64,000 bases of DNA from Candidatus Heimdallarchaeota archaeon (GTDB lineage: Archaea > Asgardarchaeota > Heimdallarchaeia > Hodarchaeales > Hodarchaeaceae): assembly GCA_020353515.1 (NCBI GenBank), contig CP070695.1, forward strand, positions 3,392,050 to 3,456,049, in the 5' to 3' direction. This document shows positions 25,735 through 40,559 of the stretch, one piece after another (position 1 is the stretch's first letter; each line of letters starts with the position of its first letter). The translations under genes and the position numbers were made by a program. Below the pieces are notes generated by a model. The model saw nothing but the letters and a program-made list of their open reading frames with translations. It was not told the DNA's origin and made no database searches.

Positions 25735-26052
25735 ATGCTTGAAATTCATCTCTATGGCACATTAAAGAAAAAATTTGACTCAAACGCTTCGTTTGCAGAG
25801 GATACAATCATTAACCTTCCATACGTCGAAAATGAACGCATACTTCAACTATTAGAACGATTAGATATTCAGCTTAGAGAGTGTGGTGAGATCTTCTGCA
25901 ATGGGATCGTTGCAACAGAAAATACCTTAATCCCTGAAGGAGCACGAATTGGGGTATTTTCAACAGGAATGCACCTATTATGTGGCGGTCAGCATCTTAA
26001 GGGTCATGGATTTATCACGAAGAGTCCAACACAAAAGGATCAATATTATTGA
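25735..26052 (+). CDS. MoaD/ThiS-like beta-grasp protein with C-terminal extension
   Basis: IHLYGTLKK...LLERLDI...IFCNG...GARIGVF, then LLCGG and 20 further residues. Confidence 0.8.
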   Translation: MLEIHLYGTLKKKFDSNASFAEDTIINLPYVENERILQLLERLDIQLRECGEIFCNGIVATENTLIPEGARIGVFSTGMHLLCGGQHLKGHGFITKSPTQKDQYY

Positions 26053-26070
26053 AAGGAAGATTACTCATCC

Positions 26071-26313
26071 ATGATTGTTAAAGTAAAGCTATTTGCAACT
26101 TTAAGGAGCTATGGACCAACAGGTATTAAATTGGGTGAGAGCTTCCCGATTACTCTTGAGGAAGATGCAGTTGTGGCTGTGTTATTGGACAAGTTGAAAA
26201 TTCCAAAAAAGGAAGCTAAATTAATCATGATTAATGGGAATAATAGTGAATTAGGGGATAAATTGATTGAGGGAGACACAATCGCTATTTTCCCGCCAAT
26301 TGGGGGTGGTTAA
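26071..26313 (+). CDS. MoaD/ThiS/SAMP-type sulfur carrier (ubiquitin-like)
   Basis: VKVKLFATLR...INGN...LIEGDTIAIFPPIGGG with terminal Gly-Gly. Confidence 0.93.
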   Translation: MIVKVKLFATLRSYGPTGIKLGESFPITLEEDAVVAVLLDKLKIPKKEAKLIMINGNNSELGDKLIEGDTIAIFPPIGGG

Positions 26314-27708: not shown

Positions 27709-27897
27709 TTCCTGACATTTATAGACATTAGAGGTTTTTTTTCACGGTAACAGATCATTTAAAGGCTAGAATGTTAGTTTAGGTAAAATCATACATAAGG
27801 TTTTTAACAACTCGTGTGTAGTACCTTGGACAATCTGTCGAGGCGGTGGATGTAGAATCCTCGAATGGAGAGAACTACCGTGTAACGTGTGTGTTTA

Positions 27898-29709
27898 ATG
27901 ATGAATAAAATTCTGAGAGTAAATATGAAAACTCTGGAACATTCCTATGAAGATGTCCCAGAAGAATATAAAACATTAGGAGGAAGGGCACTTACAACCA
28001 AAATAATTTTTGATGAAGTTGATCCAAATTGCGATCCACTTGGACCTAGCAATAAAATCGTGGTTGCTCCAGGATTGCTTGCTGGTACAAATGCTCCGTC
28101 TTCGGGTCGCTTAAGTGTTGGAGGAAAATCACCTCTGACTAAAGGTATCAAAGAGGCAAATGCGGGTGGTTTAACAGCTCAAAAACTTGGTCGCTTGGGT
28201 ATTAAAGCCCTAGTAATTGAAGACCACCCTACTGGTGATAATTGGTACAATATTGTGATCTCAAAAGACAAATGTGAAATTGTTGAAGCAGGTAAGTATG
28301 CTGGTATGGGTCTTTACGAATTAACCACCAAAGTCTGGGAAGAGTATCCTAATAAACCTGGTATAATGGGTTGCGGAATTACTGGCCAGAAACAGATGAT
28401 AGGCGCAGGAATTTTTGGAAACAATGTTGAGAACACTGATCCTGGACGATATGCTGGAAGAGGAGGTTTAGGTGCGGTTTTAGGAGCAAAAAAGGTCATT
28501 GCTATTATTACTGATGATACAGGGACAGAAAGGCTTCAGCCAGTAAATCAAGAATTATTTGACACTGGGGGCAAAAAATTACGAGACGCCTTGAATGAGC
28601 ACGCTGTAACGGGGATTCTCGAAAAAGCTGATCCTGAGACAGGTGAAATGAAACCATATGGTGCTCTGAAAAATTATGGCACAAATGTGCTCCAGAACAT
28701 TATCAATGAAGCTGGTGCGTTACCTACTCGTAATTGGACTAACGGTCGCTTTGAAGGCGCCTCGAAAATATCAGGAGAAGCTGTGCATGAATTCATTGAT
28801 AAAGTAAAAGAGAAGTTCCCTGACTCTACAGCTACATATAATCATGCTTGCCATCCTGGTTGTATTATGCGTTGTTCTAATATCGTTCCCTATGAAGATA
28901 CAGGTAAACACCAAGTTGGTTGCCTTGAATATGAATCTGTTTGGGCATTAGGTACAAACTGTGGAATCGACGATCTTTACTATGTTGCTGAACTCAATCG
29001 TGTATGTAATGACCTAGGACTTGATACAATCGAAGCAGGGAATACTATTGCTGTAGCAATGGAAGGCAAAGTTGAGGTTGATGGGAAAAAGCTCGATTTT
29101 GGTGATGGAGCTCTTGCAGTTGAATTACTCAAGAAAGTTGCCACTGATACAGAGCTCGGCAAAGCAGTTGGTGATGGTGCTCTTGCAATGGGAAAGTATG
29201 CTAAAGTTTCCCGAGTTGCCCATGTGAAAGGCCAATCGTTACCTGCTTATGATCCTCGTCCCATTAAAGGGATTGGGGTCACATATGCAACGGGTCCTCA
29301 AGGTGGTTGTCACACCCAAGGATACACAATCGCTCCTGAAATCTTACAAATCGGTGGTAAACCAGACAGAGTAGATGTAAAGAAAGCTGAATTGTCCCGT
29401 GCTTTCCAGCATACAACTGCATATATTGACGCAACTGGATATTGTCTATTCATAGCTTTTGCTATTCTCGATATTGAGTCTGGCCTTAATGGTATGGTTG
29501 AATCGATCAATGGATTCCTTGGTACAGAGATTGATGTAGGAAAATATGGCGCAGAAATCATTCGTCAAGAACGAGAATTCAATAAAAAAGCTGGAATGAC
29601 AAACAAGGATGATCGCTTACCTGAATTCTTTTACAAGGAACCCTTACCCCCACATAATGTTGTCTTTGATGTTCCTGACGAAGAATTAGACAAAGTACAT
29701 CAAGAGTAA
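27898..29709 (+). CDS. aor: Tungsten-containing aldehyde:ferredoxin oxidoreductase
   Basis: LGGRAL, KSPLTKGIKEANAGG, AGRGGLGAV, CHPGCIMRC, EYES, DLGLDTIE, PAYDPR. Confidence 0.95.
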   Translation: MMNKILRVNMKTLEHSYEDVPEEYKTLGGRALTTKIIFDEVDPNCDPLGPSNKIVVAPGLLAGTNAPSSGRLSVGGKSPLTKGIKEANAGGLTAQKLGRLGIKALVIEDHPTGDNWYNIVISKDKCEIVEAGKYAGMGLYELTTKVWEEYPNKPGIMGCGITGQKQMIGAGIFGNNVENTDPGRYAGRGGLGAVLGAKKVIAIITDDTGTERLQPVNQELFDTGGKKLRDALNEHAVTGILEKADPETGEMKPYGALKNYGTNVLQNIINEAGALPTRNWTNGRFEGASKISGEAVHEFIDKVKEKFPDSTATYNHACHPGCIMRCSNIVPYEDTGKHQVGCLEYESVWALGTNCGIDDLYYVAELNRVCNDLGLDTIEAGNTIAVAMEGKVEVDGKKLDFGDGALAVELLKKVATDTELGKAVGDGALAMGKYAKVSRVAHVKGQSLPAYDPRPIKGIGVTYATGPQGGCHTQGYTIAPEILQIGGKPDRVDVKKAELSRAFQHTTAYIDATGYCLFIAFAILDIESGLNGMVESINGFLGTEIDVGKYGAEIIRQEREFNKKAGMTNKDDRLPEFFYKEPLPPHNVVFDVPDEELDKVHQE

Positions 29710-34807: not shown

Positions 34808-35599
34808 TTGAAAATGTCTTGGTACGACGAGTATAACAATCTATTAGATGATTTCACACGCGCTGTTGAAGATGAGCTTCTGCAATATGTTCGTGGACTT
34901 ATTCTCTATGGATCTTATCAAAAGGAACAGGAAGAACCAGGTTGGATTATTCCTGGGATTAGCGATATAGATTTCATCTTAGTAGTTGACATCGATGACA
35001 TCAATGAAGAGAAACCACCACGAAGGTTAGCAAAAATTGGAGAAGCTTTATCAGTTTTCTTTGTTCATCCTGTTTACGCGCCTATTCTCGATTTACGACT
35101 ACTAGAATATACTGACTTACCAGCAAGAATTGGCATGGGTTTCTCCCCCATTCATGCTATCGCAGCTGCTCAGTATGGGGAAGCTATTCTCGGTAAAAAT
35201 GTTCTAGAGAATTTTACCTATAGTGAGAAATTATTGAACCGTTCTGCGAAAATAATCATAAATCAGGGTTATGAAAGTATTAAGCGTGGCTTTTTACATC
35301 ACGAACTTGGAGTAGAACCTGTTTGTTTTGAATTTGCTGATATAGTTCTAGACATCGCTCATGCAGCTCTAGCTGCGTCTGGAATATTTAATCTGGTTAG
35401 GCCAGAAGTTCCAGAGAAATTTGATCTCCTTTTAGGTGACCAAATAGGTAGTGACAGTGTTGATATTGTTTATGAATCTAAGAAGTGGCGTATGGGTAGC
35501 CAAAAAATGGAACCTTCTGAATTTCTACGTGGATCCCTTAAATTTGCCCAAGCTGTAATAAAACATATCAGAAATCCTTTTAATTCGAAGAATCCTTGA
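34808..35599 (+). CDS. Pol-beta-like nucleotidyltransferase with helical (HEPN-like) C-domain
   Basis: LYGSY...SDIDFILVV signature; C-terminal helical bundle (IAHAALAASG). Confidence 0.75.
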   Translation: MKMSWYDEYNNLLDDFTRAVEDELLQYVRGLILYGSYQKEQEEPGWIIPGISDIDFILVVDIDDINEEKPPRRLAKIGEALSVFFVHPVYAPILDLRLLEYTDLPARIGMGFSPIHAIAAAQYGEAILGKNVLENFTYSEKLLNRSAKIIINQGYESIKRGFLHHELGVEPVCFEFADIVLDIAHAALAASGIFNLVRPEVPEKFDLLLGDQIGSDSVDIVYESKKWRMGSQKMEPSEFLRGSLKFAQAVIKHIRNPFNSKNP

Positions 35600-35626: not shown

Positions 35627-36763
35627 ATGAACCAAGAGAAGGTTTCATCGATTAACAATAATAATGATTCTAAAGATAAACCGTCAATTTCGAAGATCCC
35701 TTGGGTAAGATCTGATCTTGTTCGTCATAAAAAAGGCCAATACTACTATGAAACTAGTGATCTAGTTATTATAGCCCTTTTCTGCGCGTTAGGGGGAATT
35801 CTTAGCACTTTCGTTGGGTACTTAGGTAATCTTATTAATAGAATTCTTGGAATACCATTTGGTGGGGGGCAAATTTTGGCAGGTCTGCACATTTTTTGGA
35901 TTATTTTCATTTATCTTTTAACAAATCGGAAAATCGGGGTAGCGTTTTTTACTGGTATTGTAAAAGGATTTATAGAATTTTTTTCGGGTAGTGCACATGG
36001 TATCCTAGTTCTTCTGATTTCTGGAACTCAAGGTTTGATAATTGAGATCATCTTGATCCTATTTCTCTCCTCAAACAATAAAATGATTATTTCTTTTGCA
36101 TCTGGACTTGCAAGCACTTCTAACGTATTTATTCAGCAATTAATCTTCTTTAACTCACAGATCCCTCCTCTTTTTATTGCATTCATTGGTGGTTTAAGTT
36201 TTATTTCTGGATTTATCCTTGGAGGAATATTTCCGATTGCCATATATCATCTATTCAGTAAATCTACAATTCTAAATTGGCGTAAAACTCCCAGCTCACC
36301 TCATCACTTGAAATACATCCAATTGTTACGGATTAGTATTATTTTCTTTCTTGTAGTCAGTGAGATTGCAATATTTTCCTTTTTATTGTTTCAAAATCGT
36401 TTTTCGGTTCAAATTACAGGAGATATATACAATCCTTATACTTTTTATCCTGCTGATTTTTTAGATCGTCAGGTAACGATAGAAGCGGAATTAATAGGTG
36501 ATGTGTCATATGAACCTCCTAAAAACTATACAGGTGTTCCACTCTATATCATAATTGAAGCTGCACAACCAGTTTCAGAAATTTTCCTAGTAAAAGTAAT
36601 TGCATCAGATGGTTATTTTATTGTACTTAGTTCTACCGAGATACAGGAAAATCCTTCGTTAATACTCACGATGGAGCCTACAGGTCTTCGATTAATCGCT
36701 AAAAATTTACATGGAAGCTATTGGGTTAAAAAAGTCAATCGTATCGCAATCGAGGGAAATTAA
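35627..36763 (+). CDS. ECF transporter S component fused to a molybdopterin-oxidoreductase (sulfite oxidase fold) domain
   Basis: TSDLVIIA N-terminus and six TMs (YkoE/ABC_cobalt type), an extra TM, then YTGVPL...IASDGY...LRLIA...WVKKV. Confidence 0.85.
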   Translation: MNQEKVSSINNNNDSKDKPSISKIPWVRSDLVRHKKGQYYYETSDLVIIALFCALGGILSTFVGYLGNLINRILGIPFGGGQILAGLHIFWIIFIYLLTNRKIGVAFFTGIVKGFIEFFSGSAHGILVLLISGTQGLIIEIILILFLSSNNKMIISFASGLASTSNVFIQQLIFFNSQIPPLFIAFIGGLSFISGFILGGIFPIAIYHLFSKSTILNWRKTPSSPHHLKYIQLLRISIIFFLVVSEIAIFSFLLFQNRFSVQITGDIYNPYTFYPADFLDRQVTIEAELIGDVSYEPPKNYTGVPLYIIIEAAQPVSEIFLVKVIASDGYFIVLSSTEIQENPSLILTMEPTGLRLIAKNLHGSYWVKKVNRIAIEGN

Positions 36764-36871
36764 CTAAAACAATCAGTTATGTCATTAGGTTATTAATGTA
36801 GTGACTTTGAGTTCATAAAAAAGGCTGATTTCTAATGAATCAAAAGGTATAATAATGCCTCGACTGTATTA

Positions 36872-38380
36872 GTGATCAATTTGAACTCTCCCATTATTCA
36901 AGTTCAAAATCTGTCATTTTGGTATCAAGGGTCTAAAATTTCTGTATTAGAAGATATTAACTTAGAGTTCAACAAAGGAGAGATCGTTTGTATATCTGGT
37001 TCAAGTGGTGGAGGAAAAACAACTTTAGCATTAGCACTCACAGGTCATATTCCTCACACTATAGCAGGTAATTTAAAGGGGGAGATTCTTTTCCATGGGG
37101 TACCAAGTTCAGGACTTTCTATTACAGAAATCAGTCAGCTTATGGGTTTTGTACAACAAGATCCAGAAAATCAGTTAGTTACGCCTACAGTTTATGAGGA
37201 AATAGCTTTTGGCCCTGAAAACTTATCTATAAGTAAGGAGGAGATATTTAATCGTGTTCAGTTTGGTTTGAACACAATGGACTTGACTTTACTTGCTTCA
37301 AGGTCCACAAATGAGCTCTCTGGTGGAGAGAAGCAACGTGTTGCTGTTGCATCCATACTTTCTATGTACCCCAAAGTTCTAGTTCTCGATGAACCAACAT
37401 CCTCATTAGATGTTCAAAGTATCCAAAAACTTCTACTCGCGTTACAGGAGTTGAATCAAACCAAAAAGATGACAATCATTATCCTTGAACACAAACCTTA
37501 TTTATTCAAAAAATTAATTGATAGAATAATCGTTCTCGAACAGGGGAGAATTATTGAGGAATTAAGGAAACCTAAAATCAATTTTAACCGTTTAGAGGTT
37601 CCTCGGAAAGTTCTTCAAGATATTCAACACATTCAGACAGAAAAAAAACCTCAAAATATCTTGGATGTTCAGAAGCTCTATATTACGTTGAAAAATCGTG
37701 AAATATTGAAAAAAGTGTCCTTAAAATTAAAGAAAGGGTTAATTTATGCAATTGTTGGTCCTAATGGAGCTGGAAAAACAACATTACTTCACTCTTTCCT
37801 TAATATAGTTCCTAATAATGGAACTGTTTTATTAAATGCCAATAAAATATCAAAAATCCCCATCCATAAACTAGCCAAAGATATCGGGTTGATTTTTCAA
37901 AATCCAAATCATCAGATCTTTGAAAAAACTGTGATTGACGAAATGACTTTTGCTCCCAGAAATTTCAAGCAATCCCTTAATGAGACTCTTCTAAGAGCAA
38001 ATCAACTATTGAAAGATACAAATCTAGATTCTTACGTGAAGGTACCCCCTTTTAGTCTAAGTTTTGGTGAAAAACGACGTTTGAACATTTGCTCAATATT
38101 AATTTACAAACCAGAGCTTCTGTTACTTGACGAGCCATTTATAGGGCAGGATCGCGAAAATATTGAATTTTTACTTCATCTTTTGAAAGAACGGAAGTTA
38201 AAGGGAGGTACAACTGTAATAATTTCTCATAGGAGAGAACTTTGTGATCTAGTAGATTATTTTTATGTTTTGAAAAATGGTGAGATTATCACCCAAGGTA
38301 CACCAAAAGAGATGATTCCTTTTTTGAATGAAAACGAGATTCTCGATTCTTCTATAGATGTGAAGTTTAATGCAAGATAA
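36872..38380 (+). CDS. ECF transporter duplicated ATPase (A-A' fusion)
   Basis: Two ABC domains: GSSGGGKTT / QDPENQL / LSGGEKQR, and GPNGAGKTT / FQNPNHQ / LSFGEKRR. Confidence 0.95.
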   Translation: MINLNSPIIQVQNLSFWYQGSKISVLEDINLEFNKGEIVCISGSSGGGKTTLALALTGHIPHTIAGNLKGEILFHGVPSSGLSITEISQLMGFVQQDPENQLVTPTVYEEIAFGPENLSISKEEIFNRVQFGLNTMDLTLLASRSTNELSGGEKQRVAVASILSMYPKVLVLDEPTSSLDVQSIQKLLLALQELNQTKKMTIIILEHKPYLFKKLIDRIIVLEQGRIIEELRKPKINFNRLEVPRKVLQDIQHIQTEKKPQNILDVQKLYITLKNREILKKVSLKLKKGLIYAIVGPNGAGKTTLLHSFLNIVPNNGTVLLNANKISKIPIHKLAKDIGLIFQNPNHQIFEKTVIDEMTFAPRNFKQSLNETLLRANQLLKDTNLDSYVKVPPFSLSFGEKRRLNICSILIYKPELLLLDEPFIGQDRENIEFLLHLLKERKLKGGTTVIISHRRELCDLVDYFYVLKNGEIITQGTPKEMIPFLNENEILDSSIDVKFNAR

Positions 38381-39158
38381 TCTACTACAAGAGTTTTTAA
38401 CAAAAGGTCACATTAGTGGTACAAACCCACTTGTGAAGTTCCTTGCAGTCATTGTTGTATCAATAACTCTTTTTGGAACATCTAATTTGTTTAAAATCTA
38501 TTTTATCGTTCTTATCATCATCTTGGTTTATATTTTTGGTAAATTACCCTTTGAAGTTGCCAAACCACGGTATAAAATGATGTTTCTCTTTTCTTTTACT
38601 ATTTTTTTCGTTCAAATCCTTTTTGTTCACGGAGGGAATTTATTCTTTTATCTAATACCATTACAACTCGGTGAACACGGTCCTTTCTTCCCTATATACG
38701 AACATGGATTCTACCAGGGATTAATTTTAATAGGACGTTTTTGGGGTTTGATTACTATCAGTTGGTTATTTATTAATTCAACTAATCCTTTTGCTTTCGC
38801 TCAATCATTGACAAAAATCGGAATTCCTTATCGTTTTGCGTTTTCTTTGTCTCTTGCACTACGTTTCGCTCCAGTTTTTAGTACAGAAACAAATATTGTT
38901 CAAAATGCACAACAAGCAAGAGGGCTTAATGTTAATCCTAACAATCTAAAAGGAATTTTCAATCTCCTCAAGCATACCTTAATTCCGATGATTGGTTCAA
39001 CATTAAATCGGATTCGTGATATTACAATTAGTATGGATGGACGAGCGTTCGGTAGTTATACAACAAGAACCTATATCAGAGAAATTCCCTTCACTTTACT
39101 TGATGGGTGTAAACTGATAGTTTTACTTTGTTTATTGTTCATTTTAAGCATTCTTTAA
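38370..39158 (+). CDS. ECF transporter T component (CbiQ/EcfT)
   Basis: NPLVK, ALRFAP, AQQARG, MDGRAF. Confidence 0.93.
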   Translation: MQDNLLQEFLTKGHISGTNPLVKFLAVIVVSITLFGTSNLFKIYFIVLIIILVYIFGKLPFEVAKPRYKMMFLFSFTIFFVQILFVHGGNLFFYLIPLQLGEHGPFFPIYEHGFYQGLILIGRFWGLITISWLFINSTNPFAFAQSLTKIGIPYRFAFSLSLALRFAPVFSTETNIVQNAQQARGLNVNPNNLKGIFNLLKHTLIPMIGSTLNRIRDITISMDGRAFGSYTTRTYIREIPFTLLDGCKLIVLLCLLFILSIL

Positions 39159-39214: not shown

Positions 39215-39952
39215 ATGGCTCAAGATCGTTTTTACTCTGAAAAACCGTTGGTTCATCAGCATATCGTTCTTATAAATATCTCAGAGCTATATGGTCATGA
39301 AGAGATCGTGCAAACGCAAGTAGAGTGGTTAAAAGACAACTTAAAAAAACTTGGATATTTTTTCCGTCCGATCTTAGTAGCTAAGCACGAAAAAGTCATT
39401 CTTGACGGTCATCATCGAGTGGTTGCGCTTCAGGAAATAGGTGAAGAAAAGGGGGTAAAAACAATAAAGATTCCATGTGTTGAGATTGAATATGTTGACA
39501 ATCCTGATATAACACTCGGAACTTGGCATCCAATTTATACTGGAAAAGGATCCTTTAGCTTTCCAGATGAAATCAATAAAATTGGGATAGAATGGGAAAA
39601 AGTAGAATTATTTTCCCCGGCTCTATTGAATGTTCCAAAATTCGGTTTTACTCTCAAAACGAATGATGGTTGTTATTTCTGCTTAAAAGGAACTCAACAA
39701 GACATTTACAAGAAGTTTCTCAGCCATTTCGAACCTGAGGCCTTCGATTATGCGAAAACACTTGATTATGCTATACAATCGGTTGAAACTGGTAAAGGAA
39801 CATTTGCGCTTCTACGAACACGAGTCACAAAACAGGATGTCATCAGATCAGCGAAAAGTGAGAAACTTTATGCACCTAAAACAACACGTCATATTCTCTC
39901 GTTTCGATATCAGGATATTAAAGTTCCCCTAGAAAAATTATTTCAGTCATAG
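39215..39952 (+). CDS. serK: ADP-dependent L-serine kinase (ParB-like fold)
   Basis: GHEE, LDGHHR, TWHP, PKTTRH, VPLEKLF; matches Thermococcus SerK along its length as recalled. Confidence 0.85.
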   Translation: MAQDRFYSEKPLVHQHIVLINISELYGHEEIVQTQVEWLKDNLKKLGYFFRPILVAKHEKVILDGHHRVVALQEIGEEKGVKTIKIPCVEIEYVDNPDITLGTWHPIYTGKGSFSFPDEINKIGIEWEKVELFSPALLNVPKFGFTLKTNDGCYFCLKGTQQDIYKKFLSHFEPEAFDYAKTLDYAIQSVETGKGTFALLRTRVTKQDVIRSAKSEKLYAPKTTRHILSFRYQDIKVPLEKLFQS

Positions 39953-39971
39953 TCCTTTGGTGAGATAAAGC

Positions 39972-40559
39972 TTGGAAATCGAATTAATTCAAATTTCCCC
40001 CGTAACTGGAATTATTGAAGGAATGAAAACGTCTCGTCGAAAAGATCATATTGAAAGAATCCCAGAAAAAGTCTTCAATTGGGGACATTGGTCCGTCCTA
40101 GAGCATTCCTCTATGACGGTACGAATTCGAGAGATTAGTAGAGCTTGTACACACCAGTTAGTACGTCAACGAATCGGAGTAACCTTCACTCAAGAATCTC
40201 AACGCTATTTTGATCCATTAAATGATCCTGATTGGTTTATTATCCCTCCGAGAATTGAAAAGAATGAAAGATTAAAGCAGAAATATACTGAAGCTCGGAA
40301 TCGTGAAGCAGAAGAATACAGGTATTATCGTGAGCACAAGATTCCAAAGGAAGATGCCAGATTTTGTCTTCCTAATGCTTGTAAAACTACTGTGACTTGG
40401 ACATTTAACATGAGCAGCCTTATTTGGTTTTTGGAACAGCGTTTGAAAAAAGATGCACAGTGGGAGATTCGAATGCTCGCTCAAAAGTTACATGATCTAG
40501 TGATGACCACTGATTGGAGGGGATTCATGGAACATTGGAAACTAGAAAGCAGAAGGTAA
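39972..40559 (+). CDS. thyX: FAD-dependent thymidylate synthase
   Basis: GHWSVLEH, ISRACTHQLVRQR, QESQRY, EDARFCLPNA, AQWEIR. Confidence 0.92.
   Translation: MEIELIQISPVTGIIEGMKTSRRKDHIERIPEKVFNWGHWSVLEHSSMTVRIREISRACTHQLVRQRIGVTFTQESQRYFDPLNDPDWFIIPPRIEKNERLKQKYTEARNREAEEYRYYREHKIPKEDARFCLPNACKTTVTWTFNMSSLIWFLEQRLKKDAQWEIRMLAQKLHDLVMTTDWRGFMEHWKLESRR

Follow-up and report, generated by a model that had tools for sequence, protein, structure and literature searches.

Introduction

The thiamine/hydroxymethylpyrimidine (HMP) importer YkoEDC of Bacillus subtilis is a group I energy-coupling factor (ECF) transporter whose six-helix S component, YkoE (PDB 5EDL), is encoded in one operon with a dedicated fused AA′ ATPase and a T component, under riboswitch control of the thiamine pyrophosphate (TPP) type. 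In YkoE, thiamine is held by five contacts (Y46, W49, E77, Q95 and D131), and the C-terminal helix is taken to face the cytosol (PMC5037267). Here we analyse a related module in a 64,000-nucleotide stretch of the genome of a Candidatus Heimdallarchaeota archaeon (contig CP070695.1, positions 3,392,050 to 3,456,049 of the forward strand; hereafter the window), in which the S component carries an additional outer domain with the fold of molybdopterin-binding enzymes. On sequence and modelled structure, this module is quite likely a dedicated importer of metal-loaded tungsten or molybdenum (W/Mo) pyranopterin cofactor.

Two described groups of proteins share the fold of the outer domain. Sulfite-oxidase-type enzymes such as SorA (2BLF), SoxC (2XTS) and MsrP/YedY (1XDQ) bind molybdopterin and carry a Mo-ligating cysteine on a beta-hairpin. 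PruR (PDB 7RKB, 7KP2, 7KOS and 7KOM), a cysteine-less periplasmic pterin receptor that is paired with the cyclase DcpA, holds a pterin between Y104 and W160, together with N102; a Trp replaces the Mo-ligating Cys and the hairpin is truncated (PMC11194511). A 2026 review notes an Asp-for-Asn102 change in PruR-like groups C and D, but assigns no function to it and leaves ECF transporters unmentioned (PMC13259868).

The importers TupABC, WtpABC and ModABC also supply W/Mo enzymes and are governed by the same riboswitch class as relatives of the module described here, but their binding protein is soluble and takes the bare oxyanion, and making the cofactor from that oxyanion depends on the moa pathway. 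Uptake of finished molybdenum cofactor (Moco) from other organisms is described for Caenorhabditis elegans, which acquires it from the diet and is, according to that report, the only organism described with a Moco uptake route (bioRxiv 10.1101/2020.10.08.332338). The uptake machinery of C. elegans is unknown, and we claim no homology to it. No prokaryotic importer of Moco or of the tungsten cofactor was described in the literature searched, which left subscription journals mostly outside its coverage.

Results

A complete group I ECF importer with an altered S pocket

Positions 35627 to 39158 of the window comprise a complete group I ECF importer, with S, AA′ and T components encoded together (Table 1). 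This agrees with an earlier note on this DNA, which had read such a module from the open reading frames (ORFs). All three ORFs lie on the plus strand and each product matches its family; the S core matches PF09819 (E 1e-16), the fused AA′ protein scores above the cut-off of both ECF ATPase models, and the T protein reaches E 8e-24. The gene order is kept in most of the 81 loci whose neighbourhoods were read, and the EcfT of the window is the only one found in the host genome.

An AlphaFold model of the S protein, based on an alignment of 63 homologues (mean pLDDT 86, pTM 0.63, with the relative placement of domains undefined), places the six S helices at residues 43-212; a linker follows, then a seventh helix (226-259) and, from residue 259 to 378, an alpha/beta domain. 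The S core aligns with YkoE by profile comparison (E 8e-15), and its model superposes on 5EDL with a VIA Z score of 22.9 over 187 residues; other S components give Z scores of 10-12, in keeping with a six-helix S fold. Among 191 distinct homologues, the sample used for all residue counts in this report, S60, Y65, Q82, G86, H88, K113, E117 and N166 of the core are invariant. Of the five thiamine contacts in YkoE, the pyrimidine-site residues E77 and Q95 are kept, whereas W49 is His in 191 of 191 sequences, Y46 is Ala or Ser, and D131 is Phe, Gln or Leu. Judged from these alignments, the S pocket differs from that of YkoE and is more polar, with new invariant His, Lys, Tyr, Gln and Asn residues. 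The earlier note had named binding of thiamine/HMP or cobalamin by the S component as a refutation; the YkoE thiamine pocket is only partly kept.

The host genome encodes another member of this S family that lacks helix 7 and the outer domain (C1:4205139-4205810, minus strand; also L087:7658-8290). It has no A or T gene alongside; a DNA methyltransferase-like gene and a gene for a histone lie close by. This domain-less protein may use the single ECF module too.

The outer domain is a cysteine-less molybdopterin fold

Unlike YkoE, the S protein of the window continues into a seventh transmembrane helix and an outer domain of 120 residues. The window protein alone gave no PF00174 and no NCBIfam match for this domain, but PF00174 was matched in 35 of 63 homologues, and the domain is therefore assigned through homologues and structure. 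The modelled domain superposes on SoxC (Z 15.2), SorA (15.0), nitrate reductase (14.0) and PruR (13.7 and 13.2) with a root-mean-square deviation (rmsd) of 1.9-2.8 Å over 115-120 residues; across SorA, SoxC and MsrP/YedY the Z scores span 11.6-15.2 at an rmsd of about 2 Å. The model and these superpositions bear out the domain boundaries and the fold that the earlier note had proposed after an extra transmembrane helix. Foldseek returned E values down to 4e-6, profile comparison with PruR gave E 5e-11, and an Atlas feature search produced only matches below 0.9, all consistent with PF00174.

All the sulfite-oxidase/MsrP-fold motifs quoted in the earlier note are present, and the domain contains no cysteine; a Cys occurs in the hairpin of just 1 of the 191 homologues. 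Glycine occupies the Mo-ligating position in 186 of 191. In the window protein this residue, G291, sits 12 residues before the Gly of the YTG motif, a spacing identical to that of the Cys in a true sulfite-oxidase-type enzyme from the same genome, and the hairpin length is fixed in 190 of 191 homologues. The residues equivalent to the pterin clamp of PruR, as placed by motif and profile alignment rather than coordinates, are kept as D328 (190/191, Asp for Asn102), Y330 (187/191, with Phe in three) and W366 (190/191). The Pro-Trp at the Cys site and the truncated hairpin of PruR are absent, and across the 81 loci the partners conserved in the operon are AA′, T, repeat proteins, a phosphoesterase and a kinase rather than a DcpA-type cyclase. 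Because the Cys is missing and only the core of about 120 residues is present, catalysis is not expected. By its sequence, the outer domain is no enzyme but retains the pterin clamp and, as gauged by spacing, a hairpin of enzyme length, which might leave space for the metal end of the cofactor. It probably acts like PruR. The family as a whole is neither a YkoE thiamine importer, a sulfite oxidase nor PruR.

The mean number of Lys and Arg residues falls from 4.7 ahead of helix 7 to 1.0 behind it. This basic-residue bias, along with the cytosolic placement of the C-terminal helix of YkoE, makes it very likely that the domain faces outside, which is the outcome of the topology check that had been proposed.

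The host needs the cofactor, and no synthesis pathway was detected

The host genome, a single contig of 4.94 Mb that is 96% complete, encodes 10 enzymes of the aldehyde:ferredoxin oxidoreductase (AOR) family, two Cys-bearing sulfite-oxidase-type enzymes, a formate dehydrogenase (FDH) alpha subunit adjoining a MobA-like gene, and an XdhA-like cluster adjoining a MocA-like gene. More than 12 host enzymes thus need a W/Mo cofactor. However, MoaC, MoaE and MoeA were not found in this genome, MoaA had no match above the cut-off, and the one PF00994 match looks like CinA. Nor were the tungstate importers TupA and WtpA found in the host, where the PF12849 match is PstS-like; genomes with only the fusion likewise gave no TupA or WtpA. 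Because the late tailoring steps are kept while everything up to metal insertion is missing, this pattern points to a metal-loaded mononucleotide cofactor as the imported species.

The earlier note had pointed to the nearby AOR and MoaD-family genes. Both exist, but their nearness carries little weight, given that this AOR is a neighbour of the importer in only 4 of 81 loci and that the host genome has 10. Proximity was therefore dropped as strong evidence in favour of the genome-wide lack of cofactor synthesis. The MoaD-family protein probably does not take part in molybdopterin synthesis, since no MoaE partner was found in the host genome.

Carriage of the importer and loss of moa genes

Among 221 Asgard genomes of at least 80% completeness, 60 carry the S family, comprising 55 full fusions, four cut by contig ends and one with only a domain-less paralogue. 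MoaC is present in 0 of these 60 carriers compared to 95 of the 161 other genomes, and MoeA in 1 of 60 compared to 98 of 161. Five Asgard genera include both states, again with no overlap between carriers and MoaC-bearing genomes (carriers/MoaC: g1 13/1, g24 9/1, g44 9/5, g50 1/5 and g54 1/2). In a second archaeal class, that of the Thermoplasmatota genome behind locus L022, MoaC occurs in 4 carriers out of 28, one of these copies being a fragment, versus 89 of 133 others. AOR was dropped as a discriminator within Asgard because 217 of 221 genomes have it. It is present in all 47 non-Asgard carriers. The phylogenetic profiling suggested in the earlier note thus yields the pattern it sought, with carriage excluding moaC and moeA in Asgard.

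MptA is encoded by 52 of the 60 Asgard carriers (87%), which indicates that carriers make their own neopterin-type pterin. Genome incompleteness was rejected as the cause of absent moaC, since MptA is recovered in 87% of carriers and MoaC in 0%, and the host assembly is a single contig, 96% complete. ThiC is missing from the 60 carriers without exception, as it is from every non-carrier of the same families (whole-family counts f10 0/55, f16 0/14 and f1 0/14), while 49 of 51 genomes have it in f13, the family in which split versions of the importer occur. Within a family, moa loss predicts carriage and thiamine need does not, a further difference from YkoEDC.

Among the 22 carriers that are non-Asgard archaea, MoaC is missing from 18, interrupted by five stops in one and intact in three. 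Decayed moaC genes occur in two carriers (G257, the source of locus L066, and G302), one with five in-frame stops and the other a fragment, which suggests that loss is under way. The sole Asgard carrier with MoeA (G080) also has MoaB and TupA, with both regions (L101 and L102) lying on 3-kb contigs; this is either co-occurrence or misbinning.

A total of 121 of the 221 Asgard genomes have neither MoaC nor MoeA. These consist of 59 with the fusion family, 29 with a distant S component, 22 of family f2 and 11 with none of these. In genomes with the distant S, all eight loci read are split operons, one of them from a MoaC-bearing genome. In f2, a cysteine-less repeat protein was present in 5 of 5 genomes tested and, in 4 of 4 loci read (L097-L100), stood beside a binding-protein ATP-binding cassette (ABC) importer, made up of SBP_bac_8, a permease of about 1050 aa and an ATPase, and an ABC exporter-like pair. 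This system may provide another uptake route for the cofactor. A search for an S component in the five f2 genomes, made without a positive control, found none.

In the genomes examined, tupABC-moaA-moaE-moaC-moaB-moeA forms one operon at a locus distinct from the importer. Differing flanks led us to reject a model in which the importer and this tup-moa operon are interchangeable cassettes at a single locus.

Family spread and operon partners

The fusion family comprises 187 proteins and, as counted in genomes, 311 loci in Asgard, Thermoplasmata, Methanofastidiosa and anaerobic Bacillota. With these numbers and this spread, the fusion is not a chance join but an old family. Its nearest members bear Hodarchaeota/Heimdallarchaeota labels, in keeping with a Hodarchaeales-like Asgard host. 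Other proteins made of cysteine-less copies of the same fold are encoded in 67 of 81 loci, a membrane-anchored metallophosphoesterase, mostly ending in one cysteine-less domain, in 47, and a Bud32/RIO/APH-like kinase with intact catalytic motifs in 23.

In the window, no surface repeat protein, phosphoesterase or kinase of these types adjoins the transporter, and orthologues of the esterase fusion and the kinase were not found in the host genome by BLAST and hidden Markov model (HMM) searches. The host does encode, away from the transporter, a lipoprotein with two cysteine-less sulfite-oxidase-fold domains (C1:186497-187525, minus strand; L105:2498-3526). This assignment is backed by profile comparison, and the protein is 65% identical to the one encoded immediately before the S fusion in L005.

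Split versions of the system associate with cofactor genes. In the Asgard locus L081, a separate domain gene, S, AA′ and T lead directly into the co-oriented genes moaC-moaA-moaD-moaE-moeA-moaB-moeA. In L082/L083 the operon includes a MobB gene, flanked by T on one side and by the domain and S genes on the other. Split operons also encode a protein of about 300 aa with a weak EB_dh (PF09459) match and a surface protein of 370-470 aa that belongs to no known family (L081:9632-12022, L085:8245-10281 and L090:7927-9979).

Riboswitch associations in bacterial relatives

The importer operons of bacterial relatives resemble YkoEDC in being under riboswitch control, but the riboswitch type differs. 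Of 24 bacterial loci, 10 (some from close relatives) have an RF01055 riboswitch, the class for Moco and the tungsten cofactor (Tuco), 36-385 bases ahead of the operon's first gene. For about 12 of the remaining 14, the DNA read ends at or before the operon start, which leaves two with a start and no RF01055. In L072, the riboswitch precedes the fused S gene itself. Three RF01055 RNAs that were aligned all lack P3, a form that is tungsten-linked (PMC2408646). The single TPP riboswitch match among the bacterial loci is on the opposite strand, before another gene.

Two other arrangements were seen. In a Syntrophomonas genome (L075:5512-8061), tupABC with its own Moco/Tuco riboswitch is convergent with the importer operon. 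In L037 (13293-14076), a Moco/Tuco riboswitch lies downstream of the operon, before a gene for a 178-aa hydrophobic protein that has no NCBIfam match and resembles another S component.

Other genes in the window

A co-oriented gene with a nucleotidyltransferase-like motif (34808-35599) lies 27 bases upstream of the S gene. It has no Pfam or NCBIfam match and is a neighbour in 12 close relatives only. Following the T gene on the same strand are a SerK-like kinase gene and thyX (39215-40559), which adjoin the module only in close relatives. The MoaD/SAMP-family protein is one of a tandem pair of small proteins (25735-26313); the other is a look-alike with a C-terminal extension and no family match.

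Table 1. Coordinates of the ECF module, its S-protein domains and candidate cofactor-related genes in the window.
Feature	Position	Strand	Basis
ECF S component (YkoE fold) with seventh helix and Cys-less sulfite-oxidase/PruR-fold domain, 378 aa	35627..36763	+	
Six-helix S core, residues 43-212	35753..36262	+	model, profile alignment, 191 homologues
Linker (basic, cytoplasmic) plus transmembrane helix 7, residues 213-258	36263..36400	+	model, K+R counts
Cys-less molybdopterin-binding-fold domain, residues 259-378; clamp D328/Y330/W366; Gly291 at the Mo-ligand position	36401..36760	+	
Fused EcfAA′ ATPase, 502 aa, two nucleotide-binding domains	36872..38380	+	TIGR04520/04521
EcfT, 262 aa	38370..39158	+	PF02361
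AOR family enzyme, one of 10 in genome; likely client, outside operon	27889..29709	+	
MoaD/SAMP-family small protein, Gly-Gly end	26071..26313	+	

Discussion

Proposed mechanism

The proposal in the earlier note of a non-catalytic receptor that captures pyranopterin for an uptake system is supported, as far as sequence can speak to it, by the conserved clamp, the predicted topology, the exclusion of moa genes and the riboswitches. The imported form is probably a tungsten one (W-molybdopterin, or a dephosphorylated or trimmed form), with Mo-molybdopterin probably accepted as well. The outer domain and the separate two-domain lipoprotein would bind and shield cofactor released by other anaerobes, then hand it to the polar S pocket with its His, Lys, Tyr, Glu, Gln and Asn residues. 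There, the conserved Glu and Gln could hold the aminopyrimidine ring, and the Lys and His an anionic phosphate or metal-oxo group. ATP use by AA′-T would topple the six-helix core, with the linker giving slack for the anchored seventh helix. Inside the cell, the cofactor might serve AORs and sulfite-oxidase-type enzymes as it is, or the MobA-like and MocA-like enzymes encoded next to FDH and the XDH-like (xanthine dehydrogenase) cluster might turn it into dinucleotide forms. More speculatively, in relatives the outer metallophosphoesterase and the cytoplasmic kinase might strip and restore a terminal phosphate, or the esterase might instead trim dinucleotide forms; these roles are less likely than not.

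Alternative substrates

The alternative that fares best, though it is still very unlikely, is an importer of tungstate or a simple W/Mo chelate that replaces TupABC, with the pterin-fold domains acting as metal-oxyanion binders. It would account for the presence of TupA in 16 of 16 MoeA-bearing genomes and in 0 of 21 with only the fusion, for the riboswitch class shared with tupABC and for the invariant Lys in the S pocket. However, free metal is useless without MoaA, MoaC, MoaE and MoeA, which were found neither in the host nor in 59 of 60 carriers. TupA is lost along with its moa operon, bacterial carriers can retain tupABC beside the importer (L075), and the pterin clamp is conserved.

Import of a precursor, either cyclic pyranopterin monophosphate (cPMP) or metal-free molybdopterin, with the cofactor finished in the cell, is slightly less probable again. 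Precursors have the pterin ring and would fit the clamp, the later enzymes are kept in bacterial carriers, and C. elegans can take up cPMP (bioRxiv 10.1101/2020.10.08.332338), but this route needs MoaE, MoeA and tungstate importers, none of which was detected in the host. We give the same low standing to PruR-like import or sensing of an unconjugated pterin, which could be neopterin or monapterin, or else a precursor of methanopterin or folate. Among non-catalytic structures PruR matches most closely, its ligands include tetrahydromonapterin and neopterin (PMC11194511), and thyX lies downstream in the window. Nevertheless, thyX does not adjoin in more distant relatives, the importer family has Gly and enzyme-like spacing in place of the Trp and truncated hairpin of PruR, and most carriers keep MptA, the first step of their own neopterin synthesis. 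Uptake of a simple pterin would also leave the moaC exclusion and the Moco/Tuco riboswitch unexplained.

The least probable alternative is a thiamine/HMP importer like YkoEDC whose phosphoesterase and kinase handle thiamine phosphates, since, despite the closeness of the S core to YkoE, the lack of ThiC in carriers and weak APH-family matches of the kinase (the fold of E. coli thiamine kinase), three of the five thiamine contacts are replaced, ThiC is just as absent from 22 f10 non-carriers, and the operons follow Moco/Tuco rather than TPP riboswitches.

Points that weigh against import of the finished cofactor

Several observations count against the preferred reading, import of the finished W/Mo cofactor. 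Exclusion is not universal, because intact moaC is present in 21 of 25 bacterial and 3 of 22 non-Asgard archaeal carriers, and most bacterial carriers keep both routes. Given that tup, moa and moeA genes form one operon, their absences amount to a single event, and because kin genomes are not independent, Fisher values overstate the association. Most of the genomes are incomplete metagenome-assembled genomes. An Rfam scan of the window returned no match, and hence there is no riboswitch in the window itself. The pocket size of the outer domain is gauged from hairpin spacing and not from model coordinates, and R355 and K368, which presumably align with the phosphate-binding residues of the enzymes, are kept in only 130 and 113 of the 191 homologues. 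The PruR proteins, the sole cysteine-less relatives with bound ligands, bind simple pterins, and their cleft is reported to be too short for Moco (PMC11194511, PMC13259868). Finally, free Moco is unstable and oxygen-sensitive (bioRxiv 10.1101/2020.10.08.332338).

Implications for anaerobic archaea

The transport machinery is of a known kind, a group I ECF system, and what is new is the proposed substrate class and auxotrophy. We consider it likely, with somewhat less assurance than for the substrate of the importer, that more than half of the Asgard genomes sampled, the 121 of 221 in which neither MoaC nor MoeA was detected, and many genomes of the Thermoplasmata class belong to W/Mo-cofactor auxotrophs. 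These organisms would be fed finished cofactor by other anaerobes through importers with cysteine-less receptors of the sulfite-oxidase fold, in the form of fused ECF, split ECF and perhaps binding-protein ABC systems. Cultured carriers exist (Anoxynatronum), and the claim is therefore directly testable.

The importer family may also explain the tungsten-type riboswitches before 'sulphite oxidase' genes that were exceptions in Syntrophomonas wolfei (Regulski et al., PMC2408646), for which its members are candidate genes. The importer, or a stabilising binder from this family, could aid the production of W/Mo enzymes in laboratory hosts. If the proposal is true, the W/Mo cofactor gains a receptor fold and its first identified transporter, and a genome that has AOR or FDH without moa genes should not be written off as incomplete. 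The proposal would further mean that cofactor auxotrophy exists in archaeal relatives of eukaryotes, would suggest a growth factor for culturing Asgard and Thermoplasmata archaea, and would make the cofactor a shared nutrient of anoxic communities, like cobalamin.

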